From contig CM000155.2 in assembly GCA_000004695.1 (NCBI GenBank), positions 3,392,001 to 3,456,000 of the forward strand: DNA of 64,000 nt, in the 5' to 3' direction. The translations under genes and the position numbers were made by a program. Positions 9,165-45,159 of the stretch are shown here, in pieces. Under the pieces are notes generated by a model that worked only from the letters and a program-made list of their open reading frames with translations, was not told the origin of the DNA and did not search any database. The stretch comes from Dictyostelium discoideum (Eukaryota). Every line of letters begins with the position of its first letter. Position 1 is the first letter of the stretch.

Positions 9165-10141
9165 TTTTAAATCGTTAATTGAAGTTGTTGATTTTGTTTT
9201 AATTGTATCATCTGTTAAATTATTAGTTGATTGAACTGTATTTTGTACTTTTGAACCTGTTTTTGTTGTTTTATCATCATTATTTCTATCTTCATTATCA
9301 CTGTCATTATTATTATTATTATTGTTATTATTATTTATTAACTGATTTGGATGATAATATTCATTTAAATGATCAAGATTCTAAAATGAATGAATGAATG
9401 ATAAATAAAATATATAGTTAGTTTTCCAAAATAATGTTTTTTTTTTTTTTCATTCTTATTTATTTTGTATTCTTACCTTTCTATAACATTTTGAACCAAA
9501 AGGACATTGTGGTTTAGTATTAGTATTATCTATCTTTTTCTTTTTATTTATATCTTCATTTTCATTATTTTGTTTTTGTTGTTGTAGTTGTTGATGCTGT
9601 TGATGCTGTTGCTGTTGTTGTGAATCAATTTGTTTTCTTTTTTTATCATCTTGACTTTTATTATTATCATTATTATTATTATTATTATTTATTGGTTGAA
9701 AAGTGACTAAAAATGTATACATCTCAAATAAAAGTGAAAAACAATCACCATCTTCTAAAGTATAATTTTGATCTTTTGCCATTTGAACAAAAAATTCTTG
9801 ATTTGCTTTCTTTAAGTATGATGGATTAATACCTGTCTAAAATTATTATTATTTTTGTTAGTAAAAAAAGAAAAAAATAAAAAAATGAAAAAATGAAAAA
9901 AAAAAAAAGAATTAATTTTTGAATTCATATATATATATACATAAATACTTACAGATGAAATGTAAACAGTATCATCATTTAAAGTGATTGTAATTTGTTT
10001 TCTTGAACATTTCTTTTCTTGTAATTGTTCAAATGTTCCTCTACCAATATAATAATTACCAATATCACTACAATTTAAAATTGCACCTTTCAATGAGTCA
10101 TCAATACATTTAATATTTAAACAATTATTTATTTTTTTCAT
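8165..10141 (-). CDS. FHA + PBZ zinc-finger DNA-damage response protein (APLF-like), 4 exons
   Basis: Exon 1 (9953..10141) and exon 2 (9477..9836) encode an FHA-like domain (YYIGRG...ITI..DDTVYISS|TGINPSY...EDGDCFSLL). The PBZ motif KPQCPFGSKCYRK|NLDHLNEYYH is split by intron 9381..9476 (GTAAGA...TTTTAG). Exon 3 (8661..9380) is low-complexity. Exon 4 (8165..8587) follows intron 8588..8660 (GTATAT...TTTAG). All junctions are in phase. Confidence 0.6.
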
Positions 10142-10441
10142 TTTCTATAAGTGTTGGTTGGTTGCTTTGAGAAAAAAGAAAATTAAAAAAAAAGAAAAAA
10201 ATTAAAAAAATAAAAATTAAAATTAAAATATTTATAAAAAACATTCAAACTCACTTTTTCCCACAATAAAAATTCCCGCCTAAAAAAAAAAATTTTGGAT
10301 TTCTTATAATTAACACTTAGAAGAAAACATTTTTTGGATTATTAAAATAAAATAAAAAAATAAAAAAAATTTTGTTTAAGAGTGTGTGTGTGTATTGCTT
10401 TTTTTTATTAAAATATTTTATTTTTTTTATTTTATTTTAAA

Positions 10442-38564: not shown

Positions 38565-38646
38565 CCGGCTTTGGCGCAATGGTAGCGCGATTGACTGTAG
38601 TTTTGTAGTAATCAATCGGTTGCTAGTTCGAATCTGGCAAGCCGGA
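38565..38646 (+). tRNA. tRNA-Tyr (anticodon GTA) with ~10-nt intron (38601..38610)
   Basis: CCGGCTT-TG-GCGC-AATGGTA-GCGC-G-ATTGA-CTGTAG[ttttgtagta]A-TCAAT-CGGTT-GCTAG-TTCGAAT-CTGGC-AAGCCGG-A, followed by CTTTTT. C1-G72 start and intron 3' of the anticodon as in other eukaryotic tRNA-Tyr genes. Confidence 0.85.
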
Positions 38647-38736
38647 CTTTTTAATATTTAGTTTTGTTTATATTTAGTTTTGTAACACCGCTTTTAGGTA
38701 AAAAAAAAAAAAAAAAAAAAAATATTTAGTTTTGTT

Positions 38737-39597
38737 GCTTGTGATTTCCATTTGATTAGATTGTTTTTCATTTCTTGGATTAAAGTGTTGTATTTCGAAT
38801 TTTGAAAAACCGTACCGCGATCAAGAGGATACAAGATACACGTGAAAAGTAATTCATCCTTTTCTATCCTTAATCTCGGTCAATTTTAACCAATCTTTCA
38901 AAAAAATCACCAATCCACCACGATCTACAGATCTAACTTACCAAATCGCCGATTCAAAGGAATCCCATCGAGATGAATTCCTACGCAGACGCGGCTAAAA
39001 TGGCCAACCCCTCCACCCATATGGACGAGGCATCGGAGAACTTCATTAAGGAATTCTCCACAAAAACAGCAGAGATAAAGGAGACCTACCCCAAACTATC
39101 AATAGGCCTCAAAGACATCTCCAAATACTGCGAGACCATATTGAACATGACTGCGCTCTCAACCTACGAGAAGAACAACGGATTCTACCCAATTACACTC
39201 GAATTCCCCAAAATGGATCTCAAGGGGTTAGAAGAAATGAGAAAAACACTCTCAAACTACGATATCCCAATCGACAAGATATACATAGGCAAAGGAACTA
39301 GAAAAACGATCCACCTGATGATTAAAAACGAACAATCTCTCCTAAATATCATTAGAGATAGAAGCAAATTGGGAACCTTCATCACCTCCAGTAGAGACTT
39401 CCACGTCCTCACAGGAAGAGTAAGAATTCCCAGAGAAAAGGCAGGAATAGTGGACGCCCTCATCAAAACTGCCTTTGCAGAAGAAATACCCTATGCAATA
39501 TACAATACTATATACTCCACCGACCACCTCATAGTATTCGGTCTAATAGAATGCAAAATAGGCGATCAAATGAAATCTGGCCAACACNNNNNNNNNN
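38737..39597 (+). mobile_element. 5' portion of a tRNA-gene-targeted non-LTR retrotransposon (TRE3-like), truncated by an assembly gap
   Basis: Starts ~91 bp downstream of tRNA-Tyr, and TRE3-type elements integrate ~100 bp downstream of tRNA genes. It is locally GC-richer with non-host codon usage (CTC, ACC, GCC, CGC). The 14-15 bp direct repeat atatttagttttgt(t) flanks a poly(A)23 remnant just upstream (38654-38736). Confidence 0.5.
38973..39597 (+). CDS. Retroelement ORF1 (partial; runs into N-gap)
   Basis: 208-codon ORF MNSYADAAKMANPSTHMDEASENFIKEF... that stays open to the first N. Codon usage is unlike the surrounding genes. Confidence 0.45.
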
Positions 39598-39687
39598 NNN
39601 NNNNNNNNNNNNNNNNNNNNNNNNNNNNNNNNNNNNNNNNNNNNNNNNNNNNNNNNNNNNNNNNNNNNNNNNNNNNNNNNNNNNNNN
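39598..39687. other. Assembly gap (N run) followed by low-quality poly-T sequence to ~39870
   Basis: 90 consecutive N. Flanking homopolymer-heavy sequence. Confidence 0.95.
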
Positions 39688-39719
39688 TGGGGTTCCCCTT
39701 TAATTTTTTGAAAAAAATC

Positions 39720-39755
<36 letters not shown>

Positions 39756-39801
39756 TTTTAATAATTTTTTTTTAAATAAGGGGTTAAAAAAAAAAAATTT
39801 T

Positions 39802-41163: not shown

Positions 41164-41198
41164 ATTTCATAATGAGATCACCGGAGAAAAAACCTAAG

Positions 41199-41612
41199 AA
41201 ATTTTACTATTTTGTGAGAAATTAAACTACCGCAAAAACTCATATTTTAAGAAACGATATTATAATTTAATAAAATTTTTAACAAACTAATATCAATTTC
41301 TAATTAATAATTAATCACACTTTATTATTAAATTATCATAAAATAATAAAAAAGAATCTGGCCATAATAAAAATATATTTTAATAAATTAAAAATTGATA
41401 AAATCTAATATTATTTAATTAAAATTGAATATTAATTTGTCAAATTATAAAAAATTTATTGATTTACCATATTGTGAGAAATTTTACTATTGTAATTTCT
41501 CATTTTTTAAAACATAAAACTATAATTTAATAATATACAACAATTAATAGGAAATAATACTATTGTAATTTCTCATTTTTTAAAACATTAAACTATAGTT
41601 TAATATATGATA
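41199..41612. repeat. Local repeat family with internal 9-bp hairpin (tgagaaatt-ttactattgt-aatttctca), 3 copies
   Basis: Copies at ~41199-41280, 41472-41545 and 41548-41612 share 'tactattgtaatttctcattttttaaaacatNaaactataNtttaata'. The first copy carries the inverted arm gtgagaaatt. Confidence 0.5.
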
Positions 41613-42516
41613 TTGTTTTTTATTAAAAACTATAATAAAATGATAAAAAATAATGGGTGTACAATAAATATTTAAATAAAAAATATTAAAATATAAGAAT
41701 TTTTATTTTTTTTAAATAATTTATTCCTTATTTATTATAAAAATTAATCAAAAAATATTATTAATTTTTAATAAATTTTATTATTAGTATTATTATTTTA
41801 ATATTATCAAAAAATAATTCTAATAATAAAATTTATTAAAAATTAATAAATAATTTTAAAATATGTTAAAAAAAAAGAAATTTTATTAATTTTTAATAGA
41901 TTATTATAAGATTTAATAAATGAAAATCGATTTGCAACAGATGAAGCCACATTGGAATTAATTGGTCTTACAGGATACAATGGGTATTCGCCATGCTTCA
42001 GATGAGGCTACATTGGATTTCTCTGGTCTTGAAAAAATTAAATAGACGTCTATTTAATTTTTTAAAAAAAAGAAATAATTAGTATTAAAGCTATTTTGAT
42101 TTAATTATTGTTTTAAATTTTTTTTATTTTTTTTTTTTTTATTATTTTTTTTTTAAGTTGTTTCATCAATTTTATTTTTTCTAATTTAATAATTAGTTTA
42201 CTGATTTTATTCAAACAAATAATGAAAATTTACTTACTTTGGGAAAAAAAAAGGTGAAAAAAAAAATGAAAAAAAAATGATTAAAAAAAAAAATTATTAA
42301 AAAAAAAAAAAGTAAAAAAAAAAAAAAAAAAAAAGTAAAAAAAAAAAACGTTTGAAAATATAATAAAAATGGATAAAAAAAAAAAGAAAATAAAAAAATA
42401 AAAAAAAAACCAAGTTCAAAATTAATAAAATTTTGCTTGTTTTCGCATATTTATTCTTATAATATATCTTATTTTTATTAATTCAATTCCTATATTTTTT
42501 AAAATAATAAAAAGTT

Positions 42517-42891
42517 TCATTTAATATATATATTTTTTTTTTTTATAAAATTTATTATTTTTTGTAACAACTGGTGGTCGGTATCATCAGTGTTAATTTT
42601 TCCTAATGATTTCTTTATTGTGTTGGTTATTGCTGCTGAAGTTATTGGTGTTGTAATGTTGGGTGATGATGGTGGTGTCGTATGATTATTTAATTGTTGT
42701 TGAGATTGTTGATTTATTAATTGAATGTGTTGTCGAAGAAGTTGATTTTGTTTATCTATTACCTGCTGCTGTTCCCTTATCTGACGTTGCTGTTCATTGA
42801 ATGTTGATACCTGTGGTTGTTGTTGTTGTTCCTCATTATCCTGTTGTTGCAATTCATCATTATCAATATCTTCGTTATTATTAGTTGACAT
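42517..42891 (-). CDS. Small Gln-rich protein of unknown function
   Basis: 124-aa ORF MSTNNNEDIDNDELQQQDNEEQQQQPQVSTFNEQQRQIREQQQVIDKQNQLLRQHIQLINQQ.... No recognisable domain. Confidence 0.35.
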   Translation of the reverse strand: MSTNNNEDIDNDELQQQDNEEQQQQPQVSTFNEQQRQIREQQQVIDKQNQLLRQHIQLINQQSQQQLNNHTTPPSSPNITTPITSAAITNTIKKSLGKINTDDTDHQLLQKIINFIKKKNIYIK

Positions 42892-43000
42892 TCTCTTAAA
42901 ATAAATTATTTAATAAAATTTAATTATTTATTTATTCTATTATTAAAGTAAAATGATTAATTATTTAAGAAATAAATGTACACAAAATTAATTAATGACC

Positions 43001-43134
43001 GTAGCCCTATCGTGTTTTTATTATTTGTATATATTTACTACTGAGGTTGAATTGGAAACCTAGTTTCCTTTTATAGTCCTTAGATTTGAGCGAACTCAAA
43101 TCTATTAACTACTCCAACCTCGGCCGATAGGGTT
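43001..43134. other. Compact nested inverted-repeat element (candidate structured ncRNA or miniature transposon)
   Basis: Outer stem tagccctatcg(43002-43012)/cgatagggtta(43124-43134). Inner stem gaggttg(43044-50)/caacctc(43113-19). Hairpin ggaaac-cta-gtttcc (43055-43069). Hairpin tagatttgag-cgaa-ctcaaatcta (43081-43104). Confidence 0.35.
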
Positions 43135-43308
43135 AGATCCAATTTAAACTACAATATTATATTATTTTAATTTAATTATTATTTTCTCTTCTAATTAAAT
43201 TATTTTTAAATTTATATTATTATTTTATATGGTGATTTTGTGTGTGGCATTTTTAATATCTGGTATCTAATATCTGTTATGAAAACTTTTGTGAAATTCA
43301 AATTAATT

Positions 43309-43339
<31 letters not shown>

Positions 43340-45159
43340 GAAAATTAAATTTAATTTAAAATTAATTAAATTTAATTACAACGGGAGAAAACCCCTTTAA
43401 ACAAAACAATAAAATAAATTATTATTATTTTCTGAATTGTATGTGTCATAACAAAATGTTGAAACAAAACTATATTCTAAATTATTATTATTTATTTTTG
43501 AATTATTGTTTAGTTGTGTTTAGTGAGTTTATTATATAAAATGAAACAATTTATTAAAATGAATTAAGTTAGTAATAATTAATATTGAATTATCAATTCA
43601 ATATTAATAGTTATTTTTAAATGTTCTGTTTAGAACATTTCATAAAATTAAATAAATATTAGTATTAACAAGATATTTTTTTGAGATCTTGTTACATTTT
43701 TTATCTTATTTTTTAGGGACTACTTATATTTTAATAAAATATGTTGAATATTATAATATTATTTTTTAAACATCTTATTATTAAAACTATAATTAATAAA
43801 ATTTATAACCTTCTGATATATTATCTCATTTTTTTAGTATTTATTATATTTTAAAAAAATATGTTAAAAATTATATATTGTTTCAATTTTTAATATATTT
43901 TATTATTTTTTTATTATTATTTATCTTATTTTTTAATATATTTTATTAAAAAATAATAAAGGTTACATTTTTTATAAATAATCTTATTTTTTTATAAAAT
44001 ATCCTATTTTCTAATAATTATTATAATTATTTTTTAAAAAAAAAAATAATCACGAATTAATAAAATTTAAAAATTCTAATATATTTTCTTATTAGTATTA
44101 ATTAAATTTTAATAAAAAATGCCATTTTTTTTTTATAATAAGTTTCATTTTTTTTATAAATTTTATAAATTTTATTTTTTTTATTTTTTTGTTATTATTA
44201 ATCTTATTTTGTAATAATTTTTATTAATTTATAAAATAGCATTATAAACTTTTATTAAAATTTAATTTAATTAATTATATTTTAACATTTTACTGGGTTT
44301 TTTTTTCCAGTGTAAAGCTTACGTTTAAAAAATTTTCATCGATTTCAATTTTAAATCTACAATCATTTAAGGAACAGTTTGATTTTAAATTATTTTTAAT
44401 TTCATCAATTAATTGATTATTGAAATGAATGATTTGATTATCGTATTCATTTAATTTATTTGAATTATCAATAATATTATTATTATTTAATATTATTAAT
44501 GATTGTTGATATTGTTTAATAATTTTAATTTTATCTCTATCAATAATAAAATCATCTCCATTATCATAAATTTGTTGATCTTAAAATTTTAAAATTTCAT
44601 TTAATTTGTCAATTGTTGTAATATTATCATTATCAATATCATTATCATTTTCATTTTCATTATCATTATCATTTTCATTTTAATTTTCATTTTCATTTTC
44701 ATTTTCATTTTCATTATTATTATTATTAATTATTGTTGAAAGTATTTCATTATCATTATTGATTGAAGAAGTTATAAATGTATTTATTAATGTATTGTTT
44801 TCAAATGTTTTCTCTAATTGTTTTTTAAAATCTAATTCTACGATTGAAACGATATCATGAATTTTTTTAATTTCTTTTTTTAATGAATTATTATCAAATT
44901 TTAATTGAATTTCATTGTATTTATCTTTTGATTGTTCTAATATTGTTTCATTGATTTTTGTTCTTTAAATTACTTTTTGATGTACATCATCTTTAAAATT
45001 ATTAATGAAAGAATATTTGAAGTTGATTCTAATGAATCAGTTCTATGACCATGATGTTCACCTTTAATTGAATTACATTGAATACAACATGGTATTAATT
45101 AACAATCCAAACAAAAGAATATTATATCTTTGTTTTGGTGAAGTGTACACTTTTTATTA

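Follow-up and report, generated by a model that had tools for sequence, protein, structure and literature searches.

What kind of element is the dense cluster of stems found at positions 43001–43134 of a 64,000-nt stretch of extremely AT-rich Dictyostelium discoideum nuclear DNA? The stretch (hereafter the window; coordinates are positions within it unless a locus is named) also contains O-methyltransferase and polyketide-synthase open reading frames (ORFs), tRNA genes, and Q/N-rich ORFs; its closest protein matches come from D. discoideum assemblies. The initial annotation of the ~134-bp cluster (hereafter the module) had proposed three identities: a structured noncoding RNA (ncRNA) gene, a miniature inverted-repeat transposable element (MITE), or a cis-regulatory or termination structure, lying ~110–240 bp upstream of a small Q-rich gene on the minus strand. 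We found that the module is a multicopy part of a 1.13-kb repeat, and that this repeat is, with high confidence, the long terminal repeat (LTR) of a retrotransposon. The window copy is best read as a solo LTR of a Ty3/gypsy-type element whose sense strand is the minus strand of the window.

All four stems were present where they had been described. The outer stem pairs TAGCCCTATCG (43002–43012) with CGATAGGGTTA (43125–43135), the inner stem pairs GAGGTTG (43043–43049) with CAACCTC (43115–43121), a small hairpin pairs GGAAAC (43054–43059) with GTTTCC (43063–43068), and a long hairpin pairs TAGATTTGAG (43081–43090) with CTCAAATCTA (43095–43104). The description of these stems as perfect holds for the inner stem (7 bp, or 9 bp with wobble) and for both hairpins but not for the outer stem, where one of the 11 bp is a G.T pair and the perfect core is 8 bp long (CCCTATCG/CGATAGGG). 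The outer stem can be extended outward by further GAYC/GATC pairs, which takes the module to 42996–43141, and the minus strand of the module carries a UUCG loop. The module was also far more stable than shuffled controls, a comparison that the initial annotation had proposed. Its RNA minimum free energy was −45.5 kcal/mol on the plus strand and −46.3 kcal/mol on the minus strand, dinucleotide shuffles averaged −23 and −21 kcal/mol, respectively (z = −6.1 and −7.4), and none of the 200 shuffles equalled the module. With a G+C content of 0.33–0.37, the module forms a local island in surrounding DNA of ~0.1 G+C. The stem signal is real and highly non-random.

Copies of the module were sought via the neighboring Q-rich ORF, by retrieving the DNA around its homologues, and ~240 kb of Dictyostelium DNA was sampled in this way. 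We observed 12 module copies, including that of the window, at nine loci in two species, D. discoideum and its close relative D. cf. discoideum. Four further D. discoideum copies are 90–96% identical to the window copy, six alignable D. cf. discoideum copies are ~75% identical, and locus L010 contains a degenerate one. Multiple copies are what the initial annotation had expected of a mobile element; no second copy was found within the window itself, and a metagenome scan with the conserved arm gave no match. All 12 copies sit at one fixed place within a repeat of 1.07–1.13 kb (1,134 bp in the window), 80–110 bp upstream of a paralogous ORF beginning with MSTNNN, and the borders of this repeat are sharp against unrelated flanks in an alignment of four D. 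discoideum copies. In the sampled ~240 kb, a small sample, the module was not found outside the repeat, as all 22 arm matches fell inside LTR copies. The 134-bp piece is flanked by ATGACC and GATCC, which are not a target-site duplication. The MITE reading was therefore abandoned, since the piece has no target-site duplication of its own and was not found apart from the 1.13-kb repeat in the ~240 kb.

The ends of the repeat are those of an LTR. In the sense orientation the repeat reads 5'-TGTAACAA...TTGTTACA-3' (TG..CA), both in the window copy and in other copies from the two species, and its ends form a short terminal inverted repeat (8–9 bp). Perfect 5-bp target-site duplications flank seven of the eight complete copies (TTTTT, AGTTT, CATAT, AATTG, AAGTA, AAATA, and TATTA). 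The TTTTT duplication of the window is weak taken alone, and the duplications of the six other copies are complex. We also observed an empty site: the window sequence ...TAATATATG|ATATTG... is unbroken and has a single ATATG at 41605–41609, and L003 carries the repeat between two copies of ATATG. Window positions 41560–41660 are the unfilled version of the L003 insertion site (L003 3660–4975), L003 being a paralogous or allelic segment from another D. discoideum assembly, and the identity between window 41178–41976 and the L003 flanks is 87–94%. The insertions are probably recent, because the target-site duplications are intact in two species and one pair of empty and filled sites exists.

What follows the repeat in non-solo copies identifies the type of element. 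L006 (9266–15251) contains a full repeat (9266–10338), directly followed by TGGTAGCTTCTCTACC, a degenerate gag-protease-reverse transcriptase-RNase H-integrase region, and the last 347 bp of the repeat, and the whole is flanked by TTTTT on both outer sides. The TGGTAGCTTCTCTACC sequence (10339–10354), which is part of the Gag frame, resembles a primer-binding site (PBS) and forms a small hairpin of its own (GGTAG...CTACC). The junction GTTACA|TGGTAGCTTCTCT is kept in L006, in L009 (D. discoideum, 10245 onward), and in L010 (D. cf. discoideum, 6908 onward); the order in non-solo copies is LTR, then directly the PBS-like TGGTAGCTTCTCT, then gag, protease (PR), reverse transcriptase (RT), RNase H (RH), and integrase (IN). 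A DSG protease motif and a YIDD RT motif are present in the internal region, and the Pfam domains RT_RNaseH (1e-27), Integrase_H2C2 (3e-17), and rve (5e-12) matched above the Pfam cut-offs. Gag carries a trace of a zinc knuckle and is followed by RT-RH-IN, with no chromodomain after the integrase GPY/F motif. The PBS-like TGGTAGCTTCTCT starts with TGG right after the LTR, and its complement ends in ...GCUACCA. Eukaryotic initiator tRNA-Met has an ending like this, and the putative primer, a D. discoideum tRNA with the 3' end ...AGAGAAGCUACCA, may be initiator tRNA-Met. Self-priming was considered as well, and only 6 nt of the PBS were complementary to a AGAAGAGAAAA stretch near the presumed start, as judged by eye with no control.

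The retrotransposon also accounts for the Q-rich ORF. This ORF lies at the distance that had been claimed, with its ATG at 42891 on the minus strand; it is not a host gene but the LTR-encoded N terminus of Gag. In P0013 (AX4 DDB_G0294302), P0014, and P0007, the MSTNNN frame crosses the LTR-PBS junction (...DHQLLHGSFS...) into a 300-aa Gag body. Paralogues of the Q-rich ORF all diverge exactly after ...DHQLLQ, because the frame of a solo LTR exits the LTR and stops at the first stop codon of the flank. Window 42520–42891 (minus strand) and P0001–P0012 are Gag starts of this kind, which read into their flanks. Several assemblies, AX4 (DDB_G0271474) among them, list such ORFs as individual "hypothetical proteins" whose C termini are unrelated. 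These annotated ORFs are probable annotation artifacts and pass for hypothetical host proteins.

Where in the LTR does the module lie? Read on the sense strand, the LTR opens with the TGTAACAAG terminus and an AT-rich stretch of ~470 nt that includes an A28 tract. Next come two TATA-like boxes and then the module, which a 105-nt spacer separates from the gag AUG; Gag coding sequence fills a further ~330 nt, up to the ...GTTGTTACA terminus (Table 1). A GU-rich block, in the form GTGTAYWTTTATTT, starts ~10 nt past a CA dinucleotide and is conserved among copies of both species. Judged by its motifs, the succession of AAUAAA, 21 nt, CA, and the GU-rich block resembles a canonical polyadenylation signal. 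On the opposite strand, the LTR carries a T28 run followed by G, and an oligo(dT)-then-G layout has been reported for Dictyostelium primary microRNAs and RNA polymerase II transcription starts (PMC6161686); the run may be an antisense or outward promoter.

Table 1. Coordinates of the solo LTR, the stem-rich module, and associated signals in the window
Feature	Position	Strand	Basis
Solo LTR, 1,134 bp, Ty3/gypsy-type	42563–43696	- (sense)	Sharp borders, TG..CA ends, 5-bp duplications, empty/filled site, gag-pol after the same repeat in L006, L009, L010, and L002a
LTR terminus TGTAACAAC on plus strand; sense 3' end ...GTTGTTACA	42563–42571		Repeat borders, comparison of copies
LTR terminus CTTGTTACA on plus strand; sense 5' end TGTAACAAG...	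43688–43696		8-bp terminal inverted repeat with opposite end
Left 5-bp target-site duplication TTTTT	42558–42562		Read from sequence
Right 5-bp target-site duplication TTTTT	43697–43701		Read from sequence
Nested-stem module, outer GAYC/GATC pairs included	42996–43141	-	Folds, alignments of 11 copies, pair counts
Left arm TAGCCCTATCG(Y)GTTTTTAT; sense AUAAAAAC(R)CGAUAGGGCUA; AAUAAA runs one base on, to 43022	43002–43021		17/20 invariant
Right arm TC(R)GCCGATAGGGTTAGATC	43120–43139		18/20 invariant
Variable interior: stem CTGAGGTTG/CAACCTCGG, 6-bp hairpin 43054–43068, long hairpin arm 43074–43111	43041–43123		Alignment of copies
LTR-encoded Gag start, MSTNNN..., Q-rich; stop in flank at 42517–42519	42563–42891	-	ORF; divergence of paralogues; frame through PBS in P0013, P0014, and P0007
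TATA-like boxes TATAAAA (43229 to 43223) and TATAAAT (43216 to 43210)	43210–43229	-	70–90 nt upstream of module; window 43204–43223 16/20 invariant; putative promoter
AAUAAA hexamer, sense strand	43017–43022	-	In 11/11 aligned copies; putative poly(A) signal
CA (42997–42996) 21 nt past AAUAAA, then GU/U-rich UUUUGUGUAC (42987 to 42978)	42978–42997	-	Putative cleavage site and downstream element, putative R/U5 border
T28 run then G	43312–43340	+	In all LTR copies (15–30 T); antisense to the retroelement, directed outward from the LTR

Conservation was scored across the LTR in six copies from two species, and the module was compared in alignments of 11 copies. Across the LTR, 27% of the columns are invariant. 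The best 20-nt window is the gag start (19/20 invariant), and the second and third best are the right arm of the module, TCGGCCGATAGGGTTAGATC (18/20), and its left arm, TAGCCCTATCGTGTTTTTAT (17/20). The interior of the module varies. The long hairpin arm is missing in four D. cf. discoideum copies and truncated in L008, and another palindrome, GCAGATCT...AGATCTGC, replaces the long hairpin in L002a. In L003b (L003 9742–9763), inversion has turned the 4-nt loop of the long hairpin from TTCG into CGAA, which shows intrastrand template switching at a DNA palindrome; L003a has yet another loop. In the sense-strand alignment, 93% of cells pair, compared with 30–41% when the partners are slid. Six pairs have changed on both sides, a number reached by 2 of 500 shuffles, and five of the six come from L002a. 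In the small hairpin of L001, what looked like compensation from G-C to A-U was discarded, because on inspection it proved to be two separate single changes. The sense strand gives the better fold in all five D. discoideum copies and in the two D. cf. discoideum copies of the long type. Sequence constraint acts on the arms, and the nested-palindrome character is kept; strand-specific RNA structure is not proven. Overall, the module is likely to be cis-acting and under constraint.

What might such a module do? We lean, on balance, toward a module of a solo Ty3/gypsy-type LTR that acts as an R-region structure at the poly(A) site of the LTR. Transcription would start ~30 nt past the TATA-like boxes, so that R would consist mostly of the module. 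If the poly(A) site is the LTR's own, transcription should start upstream of that site to provide the R region that an LTR element requires. The anatomy that we propose places U3 at 43696–~43185, R at ~43185–42996, and U5 at 42995–42563, the last including the gag AUG at 42891. A module located in R would therefore occur in the genomic RNA twice, once at each end. The outer stem would close the domain, a single-stranded linker would bear the invariant AAUAAA, and CA would lie at the foot of the stem, followed by the GU-rich block. The fold would sit on the polyadenylation site of the LTR, to be compared with retroviral TAR and poly(A) hairpins, and might modulate use of this site, off in the 5' LTR and on in the 3' LTR; it could also serve strand transfer or packaging. 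Taken separately, the idea that the module works as an R-region RNA structure is a tentative one, drawn from the fold and the motif order. Among the three identities proposed at the outset, the cis-regulatory or termination structure fits best, as far as a cis-acting element is concerned, but this element belongs to a retrotransposon LTR and not to a host gene.

Several observations weigh against an R-region structure of a retrotransposon LTR. The only near-full element, L006, has a 3' LTR that is truncated on its 5' side, and an element with two complete LTRs around gag-pol was not seen in the ~240 kb, in which the P0014 and P0015 loci gave fragments only. A tRNA matching the PBS-like TGGTAGCTTCTCT was not found among the four tRNAs of the window, and the loci contain no tRNAs. 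The borders of U3, R, and U5 are drawn from motifs, and AATAAA and TATA-like strings are common in very AT-rich DNA. The outer stem is invariant in sequence and without covariation, and protein recognition of DNA accounts for this just as readily as RNA pairing does. A single copy, L002a with its replaced palindrome, supplies most of the covariation, and hairpin dynamics at the DNA level, as in L003b, can maintain paired palindromes even where RNA is not under selection. Nor is there any strand bias: G.U occurs only on the sense strand at seven paired positions and only on the antisense strand at seven, and in the four short-type copies it is the antisense strand that gives the better fold.

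The module could instead be a U3 promoter or enhancer element that acts as DNA. Its two arms, invariant and G+C-rich, are inverted copies of CCCTATCG, in which there is a CGATAG motif of the HGATAR type; they would serve as sites for a host transcription factor, ~100–250 bp upstream of the gag ATG. RNA synthesis would begin in the interval that separates the module from the ATG, with the inner palindromes incidental. Arms that are invariant in sequence and without covariation are in keeping with this, as are the lack of strand bias in wobble versus mismatch and the finding that the arms stay intact in copies whose interior has lost >40 bp or has its loop inverted. Dictyostelium cis elements usually take the form of G+C-rich boxes in AT-rich DNA, and Dictyostelium 5' untranslated regions are usually short and unstructured, both of which count in favor of promoter DNA. 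However, four nested stems with z = −6 to −7 would be left unexplained, as would the fact that all subfamilies retain stem A and the small hairpin although the sequence has changed. There would also be no R region if the AAUAAA/CA/GU block is the poly(A) site and transcription starts downstream of the module, and we know of no factor that binds the module arms. We consider a promoter or enhancer role unlikely, if the most serious competitor of the R-region structure.

Another possibility is that the module is a palindromic relic with no function. It might stem, for example, from an ancient foldback or MITE-like insertion into the ancestral LTR, or from an inverted duplication there, have passed to all copies, and have stayed paired through intrastrand template switching. 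The arms do look like imperfect terminal inverted repeats of 16–18 bp, GAYC(N)TARCCCTATCG, and the inverted loop of L003b, the replaced palindrome of L002a, the deleted arm of the short-type copies, and the lack of strand bias all agree with such an origin. A dead insertion should decay like its surroundings, however, whereas only the gag start outranks the arms among the 20-nt windows of the LTR, which is otherwise only 27% invariant between the copies of the two species. The module is also without a flanking target-site duplication, and no solo copy was found in the small sample of ~240 kb. We reasoned that a relic is improbable.

An earlier working idea took the whole 1.13-kb unit for a DNA transposon of the Tdd-4/Tdd-5 (Ginger2) type, non-autonomous and moved by cut-and-paste, with the module as an internal part. 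Its TGTAA... termini and 5-bp duplications are as in TDD-4/TDD-5 (PMC2836005), and most copies are solitary. We dropped this idea, now very improbable, because the unit runs into PBS-gag-pol in L006, L009, and L010: at three loci in two species the ORF of the unit continues in frame via the TGG... PBS-like sequence into Gag and then PR-RT-RH-IN. In addition, the terminal inverted repeat of the unit is only 8–9 bp, compared with 50–300 bp in Ginger2, and L006 has a direct repeat of the unit end and a shared duplication.

The module does not look like the structured ncRNA gene of the initial annotation. Rfam covariance models gave no match to the module at E<=10, and across the window only tRNAs reached the gathering score. 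ARAGORN called no tRNA in the module; the four ordinary tRNAs of the window, found by ARAGORN and Rfam, lie elsewhere. A tRNA, tRNA-Sec, or tRNA-like gene was rejected on the lack of an ARAGORN call and on an unfit arm geometry. DUSE is the Dictyostelium ncRNA promoter element (PMC7919456); in the four copies checked, neither strand had DUSE (consensus [AT]CCCA[CT]AA, ~60 nt upstream), looked for within 300 bp, or a TGTG box. A free-standing small ncRNA gene (RNA polymerase III or DUSE driven) or a microRNA precursor has next to no credence, despite the strong G+C-rich fold in AT-rich intergenic DNA and the UUCG loop on the minus strand, given that B-box-like bases are not conserved, no arm has a continuous duplex of ~21 bp, and the module always lies within the LTR. 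The thug-S transposon was likewise rejected, because its multicopy microRNA (miRNA_can_D3) is absent from the window and from four other loci.

Other features were seen in and around the LTR copies. On the U3 side of the window LTR there are three small palindromes, at 43591–43615 (AATATTGAATTATCAATTCAATATT), 43631–43652 (AAATGTTCTGTTTAGAACATTT), and 43666–43694 (TAACAAGAT...ATCTTGTTA), the last of which holds, just within the LTR end, an inverted repeat of the terminal sequence. The L003b LTR copy has an inverted left end and a truncated right end. In D. cf. discoideum, L002 (4000–17600) and L010 hold several LTR copies among DIRS-1 fragments (tyrosine recombinase and RT ORFs). The repeat was rejected as a part of DIRS-1, since the L002b copy, in DIRS-1-rich L002, has an AAGTA duplication of its own; by the same token, this copy was inserted into DIRS-1 sequence.

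Two further segments of the window drew attention. At 41920–42040 (plus strand), a G+C island contains an imperfect direct repeat, GATGAAGCCACATTGGAATTAATTGGTCTTACAGGAT / GATGAGGCTACATTGGATTTCTCTGGTCTTGAAAAAA, and is also present in L003 at ~87% identity; it is probably a small coding exon. An ORF at 38973–39761 (plus strand) is broken by a 100-N assembly gap (39588–39687) and lies ~330 bp downstream of a tRNA-Tyr gene (38565–38647), a position that would fit a TRE3-type non-LTR retrotransposon.

What does the identification change? It removes a false lead, as a convincing "structured ncRNA" signal is very probably retrotransposon LTR sequence. It also points to an LTR family that is missing from the published table of Dictyostelium LTR retrotransposons (PMC5006619). 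The AX4 gene models of the family, DDB_G0271474 and DDB_G0294302, are named "hypothetical protein" and not as transposable elements, and our literature search returned no mention of either. The fullest version of our proposal, an uncatalogued family of the D. discoideum group with an unusually long LTR, a gag that begins in the LTR and reads through the PBS, a PBS that differs from those of DGLT-A and Skipper, and a true R-region RNA domain for poly(A) control, strand transfer, or packaging, is doubtful as a whole. If the R-region RNA domain were true, it would offer a simple system in which to study how an LTR distinguishes the poly(A) site at its 5' copy from that at its 3' copy, and it would be a device like the TAR and poly(A) hairpins in an amoebozoan retrotransposon.

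How does the element compare with known systems? Ginger2/Tdd DNA transposons are characterized by TGTNR termini, 4–5-bp target-site duplications, terminal inverted repeats of 45–300 bp, and, in autonomous copies, an integrase-like transposase; Tdd-4 and Tdd-5 belong to this group and have 5-bp duplications (PMC2836005). Our unit shares the TGTNR termini and has 5-bp target-site duplications; unlike Tdd-4 and Tdd-5, it has very short terminal inverted repeats, encodes no transposase, and continues into gag-pol with RT. The module alone recalls MITEs and foldback elements in its size (~140 bp), its imperfect inverted ends of 16–18 bp, its palindromic interior, and its multiple copies, but it differs from MITEs in having no target-site duplication of its own, in not being seen outside the LTR, and in a copy number that follows that of the LTR.

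Among Dictyostelium LTR retrotransposons, Spaller et al. (2016) described LTRs of 390 bp for Skipper-1, 208 bp for Skipper-2, and 265 bp for DGLT-A; Skipper-1 has a polypyrimidine tract instead of a PBS, and DGLT-A has the PBS TGGCGACATCGTCTTTC 2 bp past the LTR and inserts upstream of tRNA genes (PMC5006619). The present family resembles all three in its TG..CA termini, short target-site duplications, frequent solo LTRs, and a gag with a zinc-knuckle trace followed by RT-RH-IN, and it resembles DGLT-A in having a TGG-type PBS-like sequence and no chromodomain after the integrase GPY/F motif. It departs from them in its LTR of 1.07–1.13 kb, compared with 208–390 bp, and in a Gag start ~330 nt inside the LTR. 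Its putative PBS, TGGTAGCTTCTCT, lies directly after the LTR, unlike that of DGLT-A or Skipper, and no copy adjoins a tRNA gene, unlike DGLT-A. Set apart from DGLT-A, Skipper-1, and Skipper-2 by their published descriptions, the family may be new to the catalogues. A conserved cis module of a solo LTR is a well-known kind of feature; the particular family and the long, gag-containing LTR may be new.

Retroviruses and other LTR elements offer a parallel for the module itself. The R region of HIV-1 contains the TAR and poly(A) hairpins, and LTR retrotransposons such as Ty1 have structured 5' leaders. The module differs from retroviral R structures in that its loops vary, its outer arms are conserved by sequence and not by covariation, and there is no sequence similarity. 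The likeness would lie in the layout: a stable multi-stem domain between promoter and gag, with AAUAAA in or beside it, which would be carried at both ends of the RNA if it is in R.

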